From the sequence record PZ671982.1: DNA of 43,947 nucleotides; one strand, written 5' to 3'. Origin of the DNA: a phage. The stretch's first letter is position 1; each line of letters opens with the position of its first letter. Position numbers and translations under genes: made by a program. Below the pieces are notes generated by a model. It was not told the DNA's origin. It searched no databases and worked only from the letters and a program-made list of their open reading frames with translations. Below are positions 5,586 to 32,967 of this stretch, piece by piece.

Positions 5586-5639
5586 TAAGGCGTGAAGTCA
5601 AGCGGGTGGCCCGCTTTGCCACAATCCCAGGGGGATAGC

Positions 5640-6344
5640 ATGAAACTTACTAAAGCAGAATATGACGCGTTGCCGGAAGGTATGAAGGCGCTTTTTGTTG
5701 CCGATGGTGACGGGTATAAATCAACGTTCATGACCGCCGAAGAAGTGCAGGCGGAGATCAAGGGTCTGAAAGACAACAACGCGAAGCTGGTGAGCGAGAA
5801 GAAAGCAGAAGCCGAACGCCGCGCCGAAGCTGAGCGCCTTGCGAAAGAGAAAGAGGAAGCCGCCGCGCGCAAAAATGGCGACCTAGAAGCGATCGATAAG
5901 TCCTGGAAAGATAAGTTCGCAAAACATGAAGCGGACACATCGGGGAAAATCGAAGCCTACCGCAAGCAGATTCATGACCTAACCATCGGCAGCGCTGCCA
6001 AAGACCTGGCGTCGAAGCTGTTCGGTAAGAATGCCGGCATCATGCAGCGTCACGTTATGGACCGCCTGGCGCTGGAAGACGGCGAAGACGGCAGCCTGAA
6101 GGTGCGAGTATTAAAGGATGGCAAACCGTCCGCTCTGACGATGGACGAACTGGAAAAAGAGTTCCGTAGTAACGCAGATTTCGCATCTGTCCTGGCTGGC
6201 ACGCCAGCCGGTGGTGCGCCGAGCAAACCGACACAGGTCGTCGAAGATGTGAAGTCGAAAATCACTATGGGCCATAGCTTCGGTATCACTGACTTGACGA
6301 AACAGGCAGGGGATATCATTGCTAAAATGGGCGACGACGAGTAA
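5640..6344 (+). CDS. scaffolding protein (putative)
   Basis: Start at ATG 5640 (RBS GGGGGA); highly charged K/E/A-rich coiled-coil-like sequence immediately upstream of major capsid gene. Confidence 0.6.
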   Translation: MKLTKAEYDALPEGMKALFVADGDGYKSTFMTAEEVQAEIKGLKDNNAKLVSEKKAEAERRAEAERLAKEKEEAAARKNGDLEAIDKSWKDKFAKHEADTSGKIEAYRKQIHDLTIGSAAKDLASKLFGKNAGIMQRHVMDRLALEDGEDGSLKVRVLKDGKPSALTMDELEKEFRSNADFASVLAGTPAGGAPSKPTQVVEDVKSKITMGHSFGITDLTKQAGDIIAKMGDDE

Positions 6345-6351
6345 GCAGGCC

Positions 6352-6373
6352 GCCCGCTTTCGCGGGCGATTTT
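6352..6373 (+). terminator. hairpin GCCCGC-tttc-GCGGGC followed by GATTTTG (weak terminator)
   Basis: Seen in sequence after scaffold stop. Confidence 0.35.
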
Positions 6374-6441
6374 GCGAGCGCGTAAATCTAAGGTAACATT
6401 AACGGCACTGAGCGAATGCTCACAACTCAAAGGATTCTAAT

Positions 6442-7542
6442 ATGTCATTAACAGTGTTCCAGCGTAAACTCGTCACCGCGGTTACGCAAATGATCCCCGA
6501 CAATCTGAACGTGTTCAACGCTGCCGCTAATGGCGCTGTTGTTCTCGGCACCGGTGAAGTGCTGAAGGACGTTGTAGAAAAAATGTCCGTAGGCTTGATC
6601 GCCAACCTCGTTACCGACCGTAACGCCTATGCCCCCGTCGGTACTCCGGCAACCGCAAAAGTGCTGGCGCGTATGCTGACCAACTCGGTTAACCTTTCCG
6701 CGAAAGTGGGTCCGGTAGCAATCACTAAGGCCATGATGGCTAAGATCGAAACCAACGTTAACAGCGTTGCGGCTGAGATTGCGGCACAGGCTACTCAAGC
6801 GATTATGCTGCATTACCTCAAAGCTGGTATCGGTGCGGGCAAAGCCGCTATTGAAAGCAACACAGCGGCAAACTACACCCAACCTGCTCGCGTCGATGGC
6901 GTTGGCGGTCGTACCTTCCCGACCCTGGCAGACTTCCCGCTGGCAGCTTCTAAGTTCGGCGATCAGGCGTCTTTAATTAAATCCTGGTTTATGGACGGCG
7001 TTACCTGGGCAAACTTCATTGCTTACCAGGCGCTTCCATCTGCCGAGCAGGTATTCGCGATCGGCGATCTGCAGGTAATGGGCGATGGCCTGGGCCGCCG
7101 TTTCATTATCTCCGATGCCGCTGCCGATGCAATGGGTGCTGGTAAAATGCTGGGTCTGGTCCCTGGCGCGGTTGCAGTTACCACCAATGGCCTTGATATG
7201 CTGGCGCAAGAAAAAGGCGGTAACGAGAACATTGAGCGCTGGTGGCAGGGCGAGTTCGACTTCAACGTGGCTGTTAAAGGCTATCGTCTGAAGGCGTCCG
7301 CTCGTACTCCGATCGAAGGTGTTCGCTCGTTCAAACTGGACGATATCACCACTTCCGCTAACTGGGAGCTGGACCAGGGCCAGGTAGACAACGCACCGGC
7401 AACCGTGCAGGACGTGGGCGCTGTTGGTGATGGCGATACTAAAGGCCGTCGTAAGACCCAGGCCGCACAGGCAGTGCCTACCCGTCACATCAAGGAAACG
7501 GCGGGCGTACTGGTTACTCTGACGGCGACCACAGCGTCCTAA
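6442..7542 (+). CDS. major capsid protein
   Basis: 366 aa, RBS AAAGGA, follows scaffold, followed by strong terminator; composition typical of HK97-fold capsid proteins. Confidence 0.7.
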   Translation: MSLTVFQRKLVTAVTQMIPDNLNVFNAAANGAVVLGTGEVLKDVVEKMSVGLIANLVTDRNAYAPVGTPATAKVLARMLTNSVNLSAKVGPVAITKAMMAKIETNVNSVAAEIAAQATQAIMLHYLKAGIGAGKAAIESNTAANYTQPARVDGVGGRTFPTLADFPLAASKFGDQASLIKSWFMDGVTWANFIAYQALPSAEQVFAIGDLQVMGDGLGRRFIISDAAADAMGAGKMLGLVPGAVAVTTNGLDMLAQEKGGNENIERWWQGEFDFNVAVKGYRLKASARTPIEGVRSFKLDDITTSANWELDQGQVDNAPATVQDVGAVGDGDTKGRRKTQAAQAVPTRHIKETAGVLVTLTATTAS

Positions 7543-7560
7543 CAGGCGCACATCCCAAAG

Positions 7561-7586
7561 GGGCGGGCTTATGCCCGCCTTTTTTA
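7561..7586 (+). terminator. rho-independent terminator (GGGCGGGC-ttat-GCCCGCC + TTTTTT)
   Basis: Strong GC stem plus T6 directly after capsid gene. Confidence 0.65.
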
Positions 7587-7600
7587 TAGGAGTGAATGAA

Positions 7601-8101
7601 ATGTATGGCGACCCACAAACCTTTATTGATTATGCCGCCGCGCGAGGCGTTGAAGTCACGCTGAGCGATGCAACGCGACACCTTACCATCGTTAATGACT
7701 TCCTTAACGGCATCAACTGGATCGGAGAACCAGCGGACCAGACAGGCATCGACGCATGGCCCCGCATCAATTACCCATCTGACGGTAAGCTGGTGCGCGA
7801 CACGCTCACTGAAGTTTTGGCAGTAGTGCCTGCGGGGCAAATCGTAGACTTCGCATCAATCCCCGTTGCCGTTGAGCAAGCCGTTTACAGGTTGGCGCTG
7901 TTGGTGGCTGACGAGGTAGATATTTCTCCTGTTGGCAGTGGGAAGGAGACTATCCGCGAAACTGTTGGCCCGATCACGATGGAATATGACCCTGCGACGA
8001 TTGGTAGCGGTATCTCGTTCCCGTGGTGGGATGGCTTGCTGGGCCACTGGATTGACTCAGACGGCAACGCAGCGGGTAATTTTGATGTATTCCGGGGGTA
8101 A
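7601..8101 (+). CDS. head completion / DNA-packaging protein (FI-like position, putative)
   Basis: 166 aa from ATG 7601 (RBS AGGAG); synteny only. Confidence 0.4.
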   Translation: MYGDPQTFIDYAAARGVEVTLSDATRHLTIVNDFLNGINWIGEPADQTGIDAWPRINYPSDGKLVRDTLTEVLAVVPAGQIVDFASIPVAVEQAVYRLALLVADEVDISPVGSGKETIRETVGPITMEYDPATIGSGISFPWWDGLLGHWIDSDGNAAGNFDVFRG

Positions 8102-8102
8102 T

Positions 8103-8219
8103 ATGAATCCTGCATTACTGGCGGCTATTATCGCCGCAAATACTAAACGCCAACCAGAACCGGAACCAGCGCCAGAACCGGAACCACCGGTACAGGGGGA
8201 TGATAATGGCGGGCTTTAA
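8103..8219 (+). CDS. small Pro/Glu-rich protein (38 aa)
   Basis: Short ORF MNPALLAAIIA...PEPEPAPEPEPP bridging two structural genes; may be real or a linker ORF. Confidence 0.25.
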   Translation: MNPALLAAIIAANTKRQPEPEPAPEPEPPVQGDDNGGL

Positions 8220-8559
8220 TTACGCGGGGTTAAAGCGGAAAGTCAATCCGCTGATTAAAAAGTTCGGCATGACGGCTACGGTGACGCGTCCAGGCACCGT
8301 AGACCGCGTAGACGGCGACGAAGTGGTCATCCCTGCGACCTCGTTTGACGTCATCGGACTTCGCGAGGAGTACAAGCCAAGCGAGATCGACGGGACGCGT
8401 ATCGTTGCCGGGGATGTGAAGTTTTTGTGCCAGGCAGTAAAGCCGGTGCAGGTCGGGGATTTGGTTAGCCTGAACAATACAGACTACAGGGTCATCAATC
8501 CAAACCCCCTACAACCGGCTGGCACAACCATGCTGTTTCAACTACAGCTAAGGGGGTAA
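8206..8559 (+). CDS. head-tail connector protein (FII-like position, putative)
   Basis: ~118 aa, RBS GGGGGA 5 nt upstream of ATG 8206; synteny with lambda-type neck genes. Confidence 0.45.
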   Translation: MAGFNYAGLKRKVNPLIKKFGMTATVTRPGTVDRVDGDEVVIPATSFDVIGLREEYKPSEIDGTRIVAGDVKFLCQAVKPVQVGDLVSLNNTDYRVINPNPLQPAGTTMLFQLQLRG

Positions 8560-24639: not shown

Positions 24640-24669
24640 ACTATAGTGCAACCAACCTATTGGTTGCAA
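24640..24669 (-). promoter_or_regulatory. sigma70-like promoter (TTGCAA-18-TATAGT) inside a perfect TGCAACCAA/TTGGTTGCA palindrome
   Basis: Read on - strand; followed by 5' UTR hairpin GGGGGC-ggtatt-GCCCCC (24611..24634). Confidence 0.35.
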
Positions 24670-25127
24670 GTGAATTTTGCAACGTTTATCGCGTAAATTT
24701 TCGGGACCAAATCACCACACGCCCGGCGAATTGCCGCGATGTTCTTCTCGCAATCTTCAATGATGACCAGTTCCGACACGTCCGCATAGCAGACCATTTT
24801 GAACACGGCGCACGCCTTAAACTCTGGCGGCGGGGTGTCGTCCAGCATGTGGCGCATGAATAACCGACCTACGGGGAAGACTTCCAGTTGTTCGGCGGTG
24901 GTGCCCCAACATTCTCGCTGCCGGTTGGTTAGATACGCGATCTCGAAGCCTTGCTCTTTATACATGCGCAGTAGCGGCAGCATATCCATGTTAAGGTCTT
25001 CGCGGACGTGCGCCTTGTGCCACTTCGCCCAGAAGGTGGATTTAGTTTTTATACCCGGCACCAGGTCGGCACGCGCATCGCTTGAACCATTAATAACGCC
25101 ATCCAAATCGCAAATCAGTAATTTCAT
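24657..25127 (-). CDS. HAD-superfamily phosphatase-like protein
   Basis: N-terminal LICDLDGV (DxDG[TV] motif I), RBS GAGGA. Confidence 0.55.
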   Translation of the reverse strand: MKLLICDLDGVINGSSDARADLVPGIKTKSTFWAKWHKAHVREDLNMDMLPLLRMYKEQGFEIAYLTNRQRECWGTTAEQLEVFPVGRLFMRHMLDDTPPPEFKACAVFKMVCYADVSELVIIEDCEKNIAAIRRACGDLVPKIYAINVAKFTCNQ

Positions 25128-25348
25128 TTCAATTCCTCAATCAAATTTTCACGAACAATACGGGCGGAAAACGTGTCACACACAAGATGGCATTTGGCAG
25201 CCATTACAAGCCCGCCAGTAAGGTCCATGCCAAGCAATTGCTCCGGGCGGCTGCAACGCCGCACTTTGTTCTCCCTCGGGTTAATTTGGTAGCGTTTAAC
25301 AATTTCGTCCACGACGCGCGGACTGCGATCAACGATTAAGATATTCAT
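25124..25348 (-). CDS. hypothetical protein (74 aa)
   Basis: ORF with ATG 25348; overlaps neighbours in operon fashion. Confidence 0.4.
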   Translation of the reverse strand: MNILIVDRSPRVVDEIVKRYQINPRENKVRRCSRPEQLLGMDLTGGLVMAAKCHLVCDTFSARIVRENLIEELK

Positions 25349-25814
25349 GTAGCTCACTCTCGCTCATTATTTCAATTTGTGCGCTGCCGGTGGGTGGCGC
25401 TTCGTCAAAGATTATCAATTGCTGGCACTTGTTATTGCTCGGCCCGACTTCACCGGTCACAGCATGTATAAATCGGATACGCCAGTCCAGAAGAATTATC
25501 AGGTTTGCAGTCTTCCGGGCCAGCTTCGCCCACTTCGTCGACGTGTCCTGATTCAGTAGCATGACGGTCCGGCGTCCGTGCGCTGCGCACTCGACCCACG
25601 GCAGCGGATCGGAATACGGCGGGTTGCACCACTTCCACCCTTCCAACTCTGACCAGTCCGCATCGAGCGCGCTGTGCTCCGCCGTGAAGTAACGCGGTAG
25701 CAGGTGGTTGGCATCGCTCGCCGCCATGTCATAACGGAATCGGTACTTCCGGCGCAGCGGTTTAAATAAAGCTGGCGGCGTGCGCCAGCTATCTTTTTGC
25801 TCATTCTTCTGCAT
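25329..25814 (-). CDS. DNA N6-adenine methyltransferase (phage Dam-type)
   Basis: 161 aa with WRTPPALF, DMAASDANH and catalytic NPPY motifs characteristic of small phage Dam enzymes. Confidence 0.75.
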   Translation of the reverse strand: MQKNEQKDSWRTPPALFKPLRRKYRFRYDMAASDANHLLPRYFTAEHSALDADWSELEGWKWCNPPYSDPLPWVECAAHGRRTVMLLNQDTSTKWAKLARKTANLIILLDWRIRFIHAVTGEVGPSNNKCQQLIIFDEAPPTGSAQIEIMSESELHEYLNR

Positions 25815-26259
25815 GATCTGGATCTATCGCGTACAGGGCAATTTTCTTATTACTGTTTAGAACGCGTTGCACGCGCTTTAATTCCTCGGTGCCGAGCGGT
25901 CGGCAGTCGGAGTAGTAAGACCCGTTCCCCCGCCACGCAACCAGCACCAGGTCTTTCCGGTCAATCTTAGACTGGCGGCCCTTCGGACGCACGTACTCCT
26001 CGGCCCGTTTGCAATGCTCACGCAGACCATCGGCAGTGATGCGGTTTAGTGCAACGCTGGTGGTGTATCCGGTGCGCTGCATAATCCCCATCAATTCGAA
26101 AAGCAGTTCGAAGCGCTCCTCTAGCTCCTGGCGCACTTTCTTCTCGCCCTCATATAGCGCCTGGTTGGTGTCCGCCAACGCGTTCGCACGTTCGGCTTGT
26201 TCGCGGGCTTCGAGGCATTGCGCGGCCCAGTAATTTTTCTCTTCTTGTAAAATTTTCAT
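25801..26259 (-). CDS. hypothetical protein with N-terminal coiled coil
   Basis: 152 aa, RBS GGAGA; strong promoter directly upstream. Confidence 0.5.
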   Translation of the reverse strand: MKILQEEKNYWAAQCLEAREQAERANALADTNQALYEGEKKVRQELEERFELLFELMGIMQRTGYTTSVALNRITADGLREHCKRAEEYVRPKGRQSKIDRKDLVLVAWRGNGSYYSDCRPLGTEELKRVQRVLNSNKKIALYAIDPDHAEE

Positions 26260-29042: not shown

Positions 29043-29071
29043 ACTATACTGTTAAGCGACCAATTCAGCAA
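29043..29071 (-). promoter_or_regulatory. sigma70-like promoter (TTGCTG-17-TATAGT) with ATTGGTTGC motif
   Basis: Read on - strand upstream of zinc-ribbon gene. Confidence 0.35.
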
Positions 29072-29330
29072 CCAATAAATCACAGTCGGCTATGTTGTCG
29101 ATAACGCGAACGTCCGCACCGCGGCGGGCCATTCGCTCATGTTCTCGTACCTGGTGCGGCTTCGGTTTGCCGCCGGGTCGCTTCACTTCGACGAAAACTA
29201 TCTTGCCGTTGATGATGATTATAAGGTCTGGCGCTCCCGCGCGCCCCTCCCATGCCACTTTACGGCAGAATCCGCCGACGGCTTTAACCAACTTCATAAG
29301 GTGACTTTGGATCTTGCCTTCTGGTGTCAT
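29052..29330 (-). CDS. VRR-NUC domain nuclease
   Basis: PDLIIIINGKIVFVEVKRPGGKPKPHQ matches the VRR-NUC PD-(D/E)xK signature; start ATG 29330 overlaps upstream stop (ATGA). Confidence 0.7.
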   Translation of the reverse strand: MTPEGKIQSHLMKLVKAVGGFCRKVAWEGRAGAPDLIIIINGKIVFVEVKRPGGKPKPHQVREHERMARRGADVRVIDNIADCDLLVAELVA

Positions 29331-29659
29331 TGTGCGTTCCTCACTCGGCATATCTCACCCGCAATATGCCCGATTAAATACGCCATAACCTCCTGGTTGT
29401 GGAGGTCCGGCGCAATCCCCCGGTCCCTCATGAGATTCATTGCTACGTGGGTGGCCTCATGAGGGACCGTGTGCATACTTGCGGTGTGTGGCATCCATAC
29501 AAGGCATGTTCCGTTGCCGAAAACGACGAAGGCATTGGCCTTAAAATCATCGATGCCAGGTTGATACCCGGTTATCCGCTTGCATTTTGCCGCCACCTCG
29601 TCAGCGCATGGCGAGACAAAAAATTCATATCGATAAACGTCTACTTTTACTTTTTTCAT
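29327..29659 (-). CDS. small HExxH zinc-metallopeptidase-like protein
   Basis: 110 aa from ATG 29659 (RBS AGGAAG); HEATH motif with nearby His residues; translationally coupled to VRR-NUC gene. Confidence 0.5.
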   Translation of the reverse strand: MKKVKVDVYRYEFFVSPCADEVAAKCKRITGYQPGIDDFKANAFVVFGNGTCLVWMPHTASMHTVPHEATHVAMNLMRDRGIAPDLHNQEVMAYLIGHIAGEICRVRNAQ

Positions 29660-29663
29660 AGTC

Positions 29664-31955
29664 TTACTTCCTGTAGCGATACATAACATCGCCCTCTGCG
29701 GCAAGCGGGAAGCCTTTCGCCCAAATAGGCAGGTCGCACATCAGCGCGCACAACTCCTCGGTTGTGTAGTCGTCAGTATCCGGCACTTCGGTGATCAATT
29801 CATCGTGTACGGACAGTACGATCTCATACCCCGCAGCTTCAACACCCGGCATGGACCATGCGAGGATATCGCGGCACAGCGCCTGCACGATGTTTTCCGT
29901 CAGTTTGCCGCCGTAGGTGTACTGGAATCCCCACTGGCGCGTCGTCTGATTCTCACCCTGATATTTAATGCGGGTGCTGGTGCGCTTCTTGCCGGTATCT
30001 TCGTCGATCTCGGTCGTCACTGACAGCGCAATGCCTGGATAACTCATGATGCGCCCCGACGGCAACTCAATTTTCAACCACCACCCCGCGGCGTTCGGAT
30101 CGTCGCGCTCCTCGTCGAAGGTAGGGTCGTGCTTCGCCTTCGTGCGGACTATCTTGAGCGCTTTCTTACCATCCGGGCGAACGTTCGCGCCAGCCCAGTA
30201 CGCTTTGCCTGGATTGCGGATTGCGCACAACACCGCGTCCTCAAGCTCTGCCCAAAAGGCTACCGTCTTCGGGTGAGCCTCGCGCCACATACGTTTAATC
30301 GCATCGCACGTAAGCCATACGTTTTTCGGCAGTATGTAAGTCGGGCGCTCGTCCTTCTTGCCAGGCTTCGGCGGTCGCTTCGCTTCGTTAATGCGGGCAT
30401 ATTCATAACCCCGTTTCGCCGCCGCCCAAATGTGATCGGGGAATGTGCCCTTCATCACTTCAGCCATCGCGTAAAGGTCGAGGCCCAGGTTTTTAGCGAA
30501 CTGCAAGAACGCCGCCACGCCACCACCATAGCCCAGGCCCAATTCGCACGCCTTACCGATCTGGCGTAAGTCTTTGCGGTTGGCTTTAATGTATTCCGGG
30601 TCAAGGCCGAACATCTTACCGGCAGTTTCACAATAGATATCGCGATCGGCCATAAACACCATGAGCGCTGTTTTCTCGCCAGCGATCCAGGCAAGGCCGC
30701 GCCCTTCCACGTTAGAATAGTCAGCTACAACAAACTTCTTACCCTTCGCCGGAATAATGCACCCGCGAACAGTCGAGGCCGTTAACTTCGATATGTCATA
30801 CGCCCAGTGCGCTGTCCCACGTAACAGGGAGTTGATGCCGTTGGTGAGCATGTGCGACCGCACCCAAAAGGAAATATCGCTCTCGCCTTCACGGCGTTTA
30901 ATCTTCCCTTCGTGGTCATCGCTATACTCGCCGCGTGCCAGGTTTTGCGGCTGAAATCCTTTGCCGGCCCAGCGCAGCGTGCGCTTTGCGCCGCCATACT
31001 GAAGACAACCACGGCGCCGACCATCGGCGGATAGGCCATTTACGAGCGGATTGTACTTAGTCGATGCCGTTGACGACGCACCGAGGCGCATCTCGATAAG
31101 CACTTTGCCTTCGTCTGGGAAGTCTGGATCTTCCAGCAGGTCGTTAAGCGTGGATTTCTGCGCGTTGTGGATTGTGAACGCAGGCGCGAGGTCGCGCAGT
31201 GCTGGCAGGAAGTCATTGCCGGTTAGCTTACCGCCGAAGCGCTCCCAGGCTTCCTCCTTCAATTCTTCCTTATGCGCCTGTACCGCTTTGATCGCGGCGT
31301 TCGCCAGGCCAACGTCCACATAGAAGCCACGGTCGTTGATCAACTGGTCAATAAGCAGGATTTCGTCTTCCTTCGGCGTGTTGCCCCAGTCCGGTATGCG
31401 CCAATAGACTTCCCTCATAGCGATGATATCCAACGCGGCATAGCGCAGGAATTTAGCCCACTCCTCTGGGTGCGTCTCGCGCGTGTAGCGGCGGATTTTG
31501 TAGGTTTTAGGGGTAGGCTTACAGAATCGTTTAATCAGCGCCTTGCCTGCCTTATCCTTCGCGTGATCTGCGTCAACGCCCAGCACCTGGCACTGCATAT
31601 CGAGGCTACCCGGCAACGCGTGTCGAAAGGCCATAATCATGGTATCTTCGATCTGGCACACTGGCAGGTCAATGCCCCACTTCTCGCGAATAACCAGGCG
31701 GTCAAACAGGAGGCCGTTAGCCATCACTATTTTTGCTTTCTTGCGGGAGACACGGCGGAGCGCCTTGCGCAGTTCCCGCGGCATTGTGGGGGACTCGGTG
31801 CAATCCCACGTCTGCACGCGGCCTTCGTCGATGGCGTATGTGCAAATCATAATCTCGGTAGTTGGGTGTTCCGCGTAGGCGTATGCGCCCACTTTCTTCA
31901 GGTCTACCGCGCTAAATGTTTCGGTGTCGAGAAACAGGCGTTCGAAGTCTTTCAT
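29664..31955 (-). CDS. DNA polymerase, family A, with 3'-5' exonuclease domain
   Basis: Exo I motif FLDTETFS; pol motif A VADYSNVEGR, motif B RKDLRQIGKACELGLGYGG, motif C VHDE; 763 aa. Confidence 0.9.
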   Translation of the reverse strand: MKDFERLFLDTETFSAVDLKKVGAYAYAEHPTTEIMICTYAIDEGRVQTWDCTESPTMPRELRKALRRVSRKKAKIVMANGLLFDRLVIREKWGIDLPVCQIEDTMIMAFRHALPGSLDMQCQVLGVDADHAKDKAGKALIKRFCKPTPKTYKIRRYTRETHPEEWAKFLRYAALDIIAMREVYWRIPDWGNTPKEDEILLIDQLINDRGFYVDVGLANAAIKAVQAHKEELKEEAWERFGGKLTGNDFLPALRDLAPAFTIHNAQKSTLNDLLEDPDFPDEGKVLIEMRLGASSTASTKYNPLVNGLSADGRRRGCLQYGGAKRTLRWAGKGFQPQNLARGEYSDDHEGKIKRREGESDISFWVRSHMLTNGINSLLRGTAHWAYDISKLTASTVRGCIIPAKGKKFVVADYSNVEGRGLAWIAGEKTALMVFMADRDIYCETAGKMFGLDPEYIKANRKDLRQIGKACELGLGYGGGVAAFLQFAKNLGLDLYAMAEVMKGTFPDHIWAAAKRGYEYARINEAKRPPKPGKKDERPTYILPKNVWLTCDAIKRMWREAHPKTVAFWAELEDAVLCAIRNPGKAYWAGANVRPDGKKALKIVRTKAKHDPTFDEERDDPNAAGWWLKIELPSGRIMSYPGIALSVTTEIDEDTGKKRTSTRIKYQGENQTTRQWGFQYTYGGKLTENIVQALCRDILAWSMPGVEAAGYEIVLSVHDELITEVPDTDDYTTEELCALMCDLPIWAKGFPLAAEGDVMYRYRK

Positions 31956-32180: not shown

Positions 32181-32903
32181 TTAACGGCGGCGACGTTTAC
32201 GTGGTGCTTCGTCTTCGTCGTCTTCGTCCTCATCCTCATCGTCGCGCGGCTTACGACGTTTACGAGGTTTTTCATCTTCGTCATCATCGCGGCGCTTGGA
32301 CTTTTTGGACTTGCGCGGGCTTTCATCTTCGTCATCATCGCCCAGGTCTTCGTCGGAGCAAGAAGACCCGCCACCGCCGAAGGCTTCACCGTCATCACGG
32401 AAGCGTAAACCCAGCAAGCCAGCACCGAGTCCCTTGCCGTTGGTATTGTTCCACGCCCAAATATCCAAGGACACGTTGCAATAACAACCGGAGTAGATCT
32501 CCTGGCCTTCGATCTCGTCGCCTTCTACGGTCAGACCTTGTTCCGTCTGCTTCTCGCCGAGTGACGTTTGAATGACCGGCTGTTTGAACGATTTGGCGTT
32601 GATGTACAACATGCCTTCGAATTCTTCGGTTACTTCGTCGCGCTCGTCACCGTCGCGAACTGCGCATTCCTTAGAATCCTGGGCGTAGTGGCGGTCCATC
32701 CACTTATCAGCATTCTTCTCGGATTTCAGCTTGTCGGTGAGCACTGCGCGCGCTGCCGCTTCCACTTTGTCCACCTGCGGGTCTTCTTTATCAAGAAGAA
32801 TCACTGCGCGGTATGCCGGTTTTTGTCCATCCTGTTTAGGGGTATCACGTTCCCAAATTTTAAGGAAACATACGCGCACATTTTTCAGGTTGACTTTAGC
32901 CAT
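32181..32903 (-). CDS. ssDNA-binding-like protein with acidic/basic low-complexity C-terminal tail
   Basis: ATG 32903 (RBS GAGGA); C-terminal DDDEDE and KRR repeats; resembles phage SSB-like proteins that co-occur with Cas4-like nucleases. Confidence 0.5.
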   Translation of the reverse strand: MAKVNLKNVRVCFLKIWERDTPKQDGQKPAYRAVILLDKEDPQVDKVEAAARAVLTDKLKSEKNADKWMDRHYAQDSKECAVRDGDERDEVTEEFEGMLYINAKSFKQPVIQTSLGEKQTEQGLTVEGDEIEGQEIYSGCYCNVSLDIWAWNNTNGKGLGAGLLGLRFRDDGEAFGGGGSSCSDEDLGDDDEDESPRKSKKSKRRDDDEDEKPRKRRKPRDDEDEDEDDEDEAPRKRRRR

Positions 32904-32967
32904 TTTCCAATTCCTCATTTTACATGTATCGGGGTTATTGTAAGCCACCCCGTTCGGCTTGGTTGCT

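Follow-up and report, generated by a model that had tools for sequence, protein, structure and literature searches.

The closest described counterparts of the protein analyzed here are the mini-Glu-zincins proabylysin and projannalysin (provisional MEROPS family M95) and the mini-zincin Acel_2062 (DUF1025), which are stand-alone, soluble proteins of ~105-110 residues composed of a small sheet, a backing helix, a helix carrying the HExxH motif and one helix with the third ligand (PMC3890501). The protein compared with them is the 110-amino acid (aa) product of a gene, referred to as the HExxH gene, located between the genes of a family-A DNA polymerase and a VRR-NUC family nuclease in a 43,947-nucleotide (nt) stretch of phage DNA (sequence record PZ671982.1), the whole of which is termed the window (Table 1). 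It shares with the mini-Glu-zincins the size, the order of secondary structural elements and a Glu as the presumed third ligand, and no sequence or structural similarity to proabylysin or projannalysin was found. The gene is already catalogued as HK578 gp37 and within PHROG 1365, with no function, Pfam model or solved relative, and it is most aptly seen as a new mini-zincin variant specific to phages. The protein is likely a functional metal-dependent hydrolase of the zincin type, and its gene is optional, a cassette outside the core replication machinery.

A first-pass annotation of the window had reported a 110-aa HEATH protein next to the polymerase gene, and the open reading frame (ORF), the motif and the adjacency are all real. 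The 110-codon ORF spans MKKVKVDVYRYEFFVSPCADEV to PHEATHVAMNLMRDRGIAPDLHNQEVMAYLIGHIAGEICRVRNAQ and encodes the sequence MKKVKVDVYRYEFF...HEATH...NQEVMAYLIGH.... For the conservation count, 246 homologues no shorter than 100 aa were aligned to the family profile, and in these H67 is conserved at 99%, E68 at 100% and H71 at 99%, together with a downstream E90 at 98% and, at slightly lower levels, Y9 (96%), Y94 (95%) and G97 (91%). The zincin-type signature proposed in the first-pass annotation, which depended on HExxH being kept in homologues, thus holds across the family. The additional His residues to which it had also drawn attention are present, the window protein having six in all, but the family conserves H67 and H71 alone among them and not the other four. 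A lone HExxH is a weak signal, and it is the near-invariance across the 246 homologues, including members of 21-25% identity, that lifts the motif above chance. The spacing from H71 to E90 is 19 residues, giving HExxH-x18-E, with Y94 placed one helical turn past E90. Gluzincins of the M1 family have this same spacing, and in thermolysin (M4) it is one residue longer. The conservation pattern resembles that of a catalytic metal site, in which H67 and H71 would be the two zinc-binding His residues, E68 the catalytic Glu and E90 the third metal ligand. A direct-coupling analysis (mean-field, 240 sequences) of the Glu helix versus the HExxH region gave a signal dominated by local and gap artefacts and was discarded.

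The AlphaFold2 model of the window protein, calculated from a 42-sequence alignment, is of high confidence with a predicted local distance difference test score (pLDDT) of 96.4 and a predicted template modeling score (pTM) of 0.89. It comprises strands 2-6 and 11-16, helix 19-30, a short helix 36-40 and strands 44-48 and 51-55, followed by helix 64-80 carrying HExxH and helix 90-109 with E90 as its first residue. The same order of elements, β-β-α-β-β-α(HExxH)-α(Glu), occurs in the AlphaFold2 model of a Bacteroidota-phage member of only 25% identity (P0113, pLDDT 94), in which HExxH lies on helix 81-98 and the Glu is at position 3 of the next helix with a spacing of 21. In both models the Glu is therefore found 19-21 residues past the second His at the start of the following helix, and the predicted order of elements matches the zincin core. 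A Foldseek search of BFVD returns 21 phage proteins at E < 1e-3, all uncharacterized, with matches from Serratia, Ralstonia, Achromobacter, Erwinia, Pseudomonas and crAss-like phages. Weaker BFVD neighbors with template modeling (TM) scores of 0.41-0.60 include proteins named 'PolyVal Metallopeptidase superfamily domain' (1.1e-3), 'SprT-like' (1.4e-3), 'Metalloprotease' and 'IrrE' (E = 0.058, TM 0.41). The predicted fold may be that of a divergent mini-zincin, or else a small new fold that carries a zincin-like site. That the protein is not a peptidase at all, being instead a metal-binding or other hydrolytic protein with its own fold and a reused HExxH...E site, or a noncatalytic inhibitor that binds a host factor, is unlikely. 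The gluzincin catalytic set including the general-base Glu is 98-100% conserved in a family of thousands of clusters, a pattern expected of an enzyme and not of a binder, and the modeled order of secondary structural elements also agrees with the zincin core.

Sequence searches with the window protein alone found nothing in Pfam or the PDB. Across 42 family members no Pfam model scored above threshold, including any polyvalent-protein peptidase model, and the sub-threshold matches among homologues are divided between SprT-like (in 2), astacin (in 2), M4 (in 1), DA1-like (in 1) and unrelated families. With an 8-sequence profile compared against the PDB, the strand and HExxH helix align weakly to residues 104-149 of thermolysin (E = 0.5-1); a match of the same profile to the AdoMetDC prozyme was judged spurious, and a 42-sequence profile gave 0 matches. 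NCBIfam and PADLOC returned scattered noise only, and therefore no link to known defense systems is seen. Judged by sequence, membership of the SprT, ImmA/IrrE, WLM, DA1, M4 or polyvalent metallopeptidase (MPTase) families is unsupported, and support is limited to the signature at the level of the superfamily. Thermolysin (M4) and the M1 gluzincins share with the protein the HExxH-x18/19-E spacing and an Asn close before the Glu, and one homologue carries the source label 'Thermolysin metallopeptidase, catalytic domain'; in contrast to the target, these enzymes have 300-900 residues with large C-terminal domains, and the similarity is not significant at the E value given above.

The first-pass annotation had suggested SprT/ImmA-like logic, which the searches do not support for either family. 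ImmA/IrrE proteins (M78) are, as is the target, small cytoplasmic HExxH...E proteins of mobile elements, and the weak BFVD neighbor named IrrE is consistent with this resemblance. A regulatory protease of this type, which would cleave a repressor to switch the genetic program, is nevertheless highly improbable, since Peptidase_M78 (PF06114) has no match in any of the 42 members at E <= 10, no XRE/helix-turn-helix (HTH) repressor gene adjoins the HExxH gene in the window or in the enterobacterial relatives, and Dhillonviruses, the group to which the window belongs, are described as lytic in the available literature.

The window protein matches phrog_1365 (unknown function) with E = 1.7e-20 over residues 1-108 of 110, as do all 42 of the 42 sampled homologues. 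Searches with tblastn identify 30-40%-identical homologues in three other groups, namely Klebsiella and Enterobacter Drulisvirus podophages (37 records), Salmonella and Serratia Guernseyvirinae (21 records) and the Bacteroides LoVEphage. Of 5.8 billion proteins searched with a profile, 141 matched, 0 of them with a Pfam domain. When the 1.84 billion cluster representatives of a 50%-identity library were scanned in full with HMMER, 8,222 clusters reached E <= 1e-3 and 1,418 reached E <= 1e-10. Among the best 150 of the 8,222 clusters almost all are stand-alone proteins of 110-140 aa, and the only domain fusions seen in these representatives are extensions of the type found in P0223, P0225 and P0233. 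These three proteins (177-182 aa) have N-terminal extensions of 50-65 residues, which in P0223 and P0225 contain CxxC...CxxC zinc-ribbon-like motifs.

The window is an HK578-like Dhillonvirus; over the 5-kb stretch around the HExxH gene, identity is 95% to Escherichia phage HK578 and ~93% to some 150 further Dhillonvirus records. The closest homologue of the protein is HK578 gp37, which is 98% identical and annotated as hypothetical. Only two of the 158 phage records that match the 5-kb region encode the HExxH protein, both of them HK578. In SSL-2009a and most other Dhillonviruses this exact place is taken by an unrelated 63-aa gene with the same junctions and the same ATGA overlap, and a 40%-identical variant of the 63-aa gene is present in some Dhillonviruses. 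A three-way DNA alignment of the window, HK578 and SSL-2009a illustrates the exchange. The flanks are conserved as far as the ribosome-binding site and ATG at one end and from the '...CAATGACACC' junction at the other, and the sequences in between show no similarity. The 63-aa gene is itself a roaming gene and occurs also at 60-65% identity in Stx-converting, lambdoid and P22-like phages. The slot between the polymerase and VRR-NUC genes is a hot-spot exchanging small genes. The overlap of the HExxH-gene stop with the VRR-NUC start, noted in the first-pass annotation as translational coupling, is real and can be read from the sequence; because other Dhillonviruses keep the same junctions and ATGA overlap around the unrelated 63-aa gene, the coupling is a property of the slot and is no evidence for a protease-nuclease link. 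The VRR-NUC gene is a neighbor of the HExxH gene and not an established functional partner.

A similarly sporadic distribution is seen outside the Dhillonviruses. In Salmonella and Serratia phages ~19-21 records have the HExxH gene versus 356 Salmonella records sharing the polymerase, and in Klebsiella Drulisvirus-like phages it is present in ~36 of ~235 records. No copy was found in 5,426 complete Escherichia coli genomes, and it is therefore not a resident E. coli prophage gene. The first-pass description of an HExxH protein embedded in the replication module is not borne out, the gene occupying a swappable slot that among the 158 related records is filled in this way in the two of HK578 alone, and a core replisome role is argued against because presence is sporadic within each lineage. 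At another place in the window, a 152-aa ORF (25801-26259, minus strand) is shared with SSL-2009a, where it is labeled 'DNA ligase', and is missing from the matching HK578 stretch. The window genome is a mosaic, because this ORF is common to SSL-2009a but not HK578 while the gene in the polymerase slot is of the HK578 type.

Gene neighborhoods were taken from contigs encoding family members, with an 8-sequence locus search giving mostly LoVEphage-like loci. In the enterobacterial clade the HExxH gene always touches the polymerase gene, the order being polymerase-HExxH gene-VRR-NUC-...-SNF2 helicase in Dhillonviruses and Guernseyvirinae and DnaB helicase-...-HExxH gene-polymerase in Drulisviruses, and in LoVEphage-like phages it lies 1-2 nt upstream of a D5-type helicase gene. 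More distant relatives are placed differently. Those in Bacteroidota phages directly follow the portal gene, in one case with an LPD3 'large polyvalent protein' gene next, or lie at the end of a primase-helicase module facing head genes or among assorted early genes (YopX, methylase, MazG, SSB and DnaB-like). The family tends toward early or replication operons with no fixed partner, and the contexts between which it moves are those usual for accessory or effector genes. Downstream of the portal-following member in Bacteroidota phage contigs (L012-L015, ~5600-8300), an inserted stretch of HicA toxin, HTH, amidoligase and GATase-like genes precedes the capsid gene, forming an accessory island in the head-gene region.

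The adjacency to replication enzymes in three separate phage groups raises the possibility of a replisome-associated protease of the SprT/Wss1/Spartan kind, which would open the way for polymerase, nuclease and helicase by clearing host roadblocks and other proteins that obstruct the template or are cross-linked to it. These are likewise small HExxH proteases tied to DNA replication and repair, Wss1 and Spartan have been described as minigluzincins (PMC4559962), and one BFVD neighbor is named SprT-like. SprT-like (PF10263) was tried as a family assignment and rejected, with matches in two of the 42 members that remain below threshold (best E = 0.0075) and an hhalign probability of 12% over 27 columns, a comparison in which the SprT alignment was built from E. 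coli YggI homologues and reaches down to 74% identity to E. coli SprT, a shallowness that limits the sensitivity of the negative. In that alignment H95 and C131/C133/C155/C158 are invariant, and in the 246 homologues of the target there is no conserved His past H67/H71 and there are no conserved Cys pairs. SprT thus differs in having a conserved third His and a C-terminal Cys-rich zinc ribbon, whereas the target family has a Glu and no such module. The target also has no extra DNA-binding region, and its family is mostly acidic with a pI range of 4.7-8.3 and ~5.7 mid-range (7.7 for the window protein). The gene is absent from ~99% of Dhillonviruses and from most Guernseyvirinae and Drulisviruses with the same replication genes, so it is dispensable in most phages with the same replisome, and other relatives adjoin portal genes instead. 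Taken with these differences, an SprT-like role is quite unlikely.

The positions next to portal genes bear on a further explanation, in which the protein is a solo version of the polyvalent-protein metallopeptidase domain and cuts a phage precursor, virion or ejected protein. Both occur in phages with an HExxH helix followed by a Glu helix, distant members of the family directly follow the portal gene and in one lineage the LPD3 gene comes next, and a BFVD neighbor bears the polyvalent metallopeptidase name. Autoprocessing of polyvalent proteins is the role that Iyer et al. propose for such zincin domains, and they note that several polyvalent domains, not specifically the metallopeptidase, are also found solo in phages (PMC5512222). 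In contrast to the domain of a giant protein, the target family is almost always solo at 110-140 aa. Assignment to the polyvalent-protein MPTase (Iyer et al. 2017) was rejected for the window protein, which is solo, in a replication operon far from the portal, head and other virion genes, and has no Pfam match, no member of the family passing any Pfam threshold. No polyvalent or LPD gene was seen near the gene in the 25-33 kb stretch and the large ORFs looked at, a survey made with no dedicated scan, and most Dhillonviruses with the same virion genes are without the HExxH gene. The N4 virion RNA polymerase peptidase region, compared with the family as a single sequence in place of polyvalent MPTases, gave an uninformative 4.8% probability, Pfam having missed that region too, and an IMG/VR search with it returned only N4 itself. 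A processing role for phage proteins is on this evidence very unlikely.

The preferred reading is that of a stand-alone, soluble cytoplasmic mini-gluzincin, a minimal zinc metallopeptidase whose metal would be coordinated by H67 and H71 on the HExxH helix and by E90 at the beginning of the one that follows, with E68 as the putative general base and Y9 and Y94 presumably lining the site. As a cassette inserted in the polymerase/VRR-NUC hot-spot, the gene would be expressed with the replication (middle) genes via the ribosome-binding site of the slot. The product would be an accessory endopeptidase cutting one or a few specific proteins of the infected cell, which could be a host factor, a defense protein or a phage protein needing processing; an accessory endopeptidase is the most likely form because the gene is dispensable, and a replisome component is unlikely. 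Taken as a whole, with the accessory, non-replisome role included, this reading is placed just on the probable side. An anti-defense role is possible. A wider proposal is that PHROG 1365 represents phage-specific, structurally distinct miniature metalloproteases swapped into early or replication operons as counter-defense or host-takeover weapons, which would cut a host immune sensor, effector or replication-blocking protein during genome copying, and in this extended form it is doubtful.

Several observations weigh against the presumed metal binding, peptidase activity and accessory role. Searches of Pfam, NCBIfam and the PDB by sequence gave no significant match, and Foldseek against the PDB gave no match below E = 0.25. 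In the model E90 is the first residue of its helix and H71 lies 9 residues before the end of the preceding helix, a geometry unlike that of thermolysin, which may or may not bring H67, H71 and E90 together. The window copy has a unique Pro66 just before the first His, arising from a single G-to-C change, where 174 of the 246 members and HK578 (GCT) have Ala. The sole characterized mini-Glu-zincin had no detectable activity (PMC3890501), and a literature search covering the PHROG identifier, phage gluzincins, HExxH anti-defense factors and HK578 accessory genes found no study or experiment on any family member. The contact of the gene with polymerase and helicase genes would fit a replication-linked role better than a generic accessory one.

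If active, the protein would be among the smallest metalloprotease scaffolds known, and it belongs to a very large phage family lacking a function, Pfam model or solved relative. The gene is optional in three well-sampled enterobacterial phage groups, which provides natural pairs of phages with and without it, for example HK578 versus other Dhillonviruses, and its function is therefore directly testable by host-range and proteomic comparison. Finding the substrate would annotate thousands of phage genes and could reveal proteolytic host manipulation or counter-defense; the counter-defense reading, if true, would add a protease-type anti-defense factor and give a function to several thousand unannotated phage clusters. 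If inactive or trivial, it would simply add to the accessory genes of a known hot-spot. Its chemistry is probably ordinary.

Table 1. Positions of the HExxH gene, its motif residues, junctions and neighbors (window coordinates unless another record is given)
Feature	Coordinates	Strand	Remarks
HExxH protein gene, 110 aa	29327-29659	minus	ORF and translation
HEATH motif, H67 E68 A69 T70 H71	29447-29461	minus	on predicted helix 64-80
E90 codon	29390-29392	minus	19 residues past H71, first residue of predicted helix 90-109
Pro66 codon CCT	29464-29466	minus	directly precedes first His
Upstream junction: polymerase TAA, AGGAAG ribosome-binding site, 4-nt spacer	29660-29672	minus	also kept in HK578 and SSL-2009a
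ATGA stop/start overlap with VRR-NUC gene	29327-29330	minus	overlap also annotated in HK578 (gp37/gp36) and SSL-2009a (orf43/orf42)
VRR-NUC family nuclease gene, 92 aa from overlapping ATG	29052-29330	minus	PF08774 26.6 bits (cut-off 23.8); phrog_93 endonuclease E = 8e-32
Family-A DNA polymerase gene, 763 aa	29664-31955	minus	PF00476 E = 1e-15; phrog_17 E = 8e-129
63-aa alternative gene (MKADMSIMRAGAADNDEISIVIRLERGK...)	L002:4034-4225 (SSL-2009a)		slot equivalent to window 29327-29659

At the upstream junction the ATG of the HExxH gene (29659-29657) is 4 nt past the polymerase stop TAA (29666-29664), and the AGGAAG Shine-Dalgarno sequence (29672-29667) lies within the last polymerase codons, 7 nt before the ATG. 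At the downstream junction the TGA of the HExxH gene (29329-29327) overlaps a VRR-NUC ATG at 29330-29328, which is the second in-frame Met, 7 codons into the longest ORF (start at 29351). RefSeq picks this overlapping start for HK578 gp36, and a GAGGA lies 7 nt upstream of it. No strong minus-strand terminators were found separating the polymerase gene, the HExxH gene, the nuclease gene and the SNF2 helicase gene, and these form a single leftward unit. The GC content of the HExxH gene is 0.505 versus 0.564 for the polymerase gene, making it slightly AT-richer than its flanks.

Three further minus-strand genes of the window are of note. An ORF at 25124-25357, of 77 aa from a GTG or 74 aa from an internal ATG (MNILIVDRSP...), is flanked by the genes of a DNA methyltransferase (25329-25814) and a HAD-phosphatase-like protein (24657-25127). 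Its syntenic position and length are as reported for Ksap1, a Dhillonvirus protein that triggers the Klebsiella Avs2 defense (PMC11564622), and it is likened to Ksap1 by position and length; Leu47, the site of the escape mutation L47R, is present, and position 50 is Ala versus Thr in SECphi18. The gene at 32181-32948 encodes a gp2.5-like single-strand DNA-binding protein with a long C-terminal tail of alternating acidic and basic blocks (...DDDEDESPRKSKKSKRRDDDEDEKPRKRRKPRDDEDEDEDDEDEAPRKRRRR), and its length varies from 738 nt in HK578 to 768 nt in the window and 780 nt in SSL-2009a. Downstream of the VRR-NUC gene, a small Cys-rich ORF at 28838-29083 matches the PHROG 'Lar-like restriction alleviation protein' with E = 2.7e-18 and also endonuclease VII/HNH-type PHROGs, matches that suggest a possible second accessory gene of the operon, with an anti-restriction or nuclease function.

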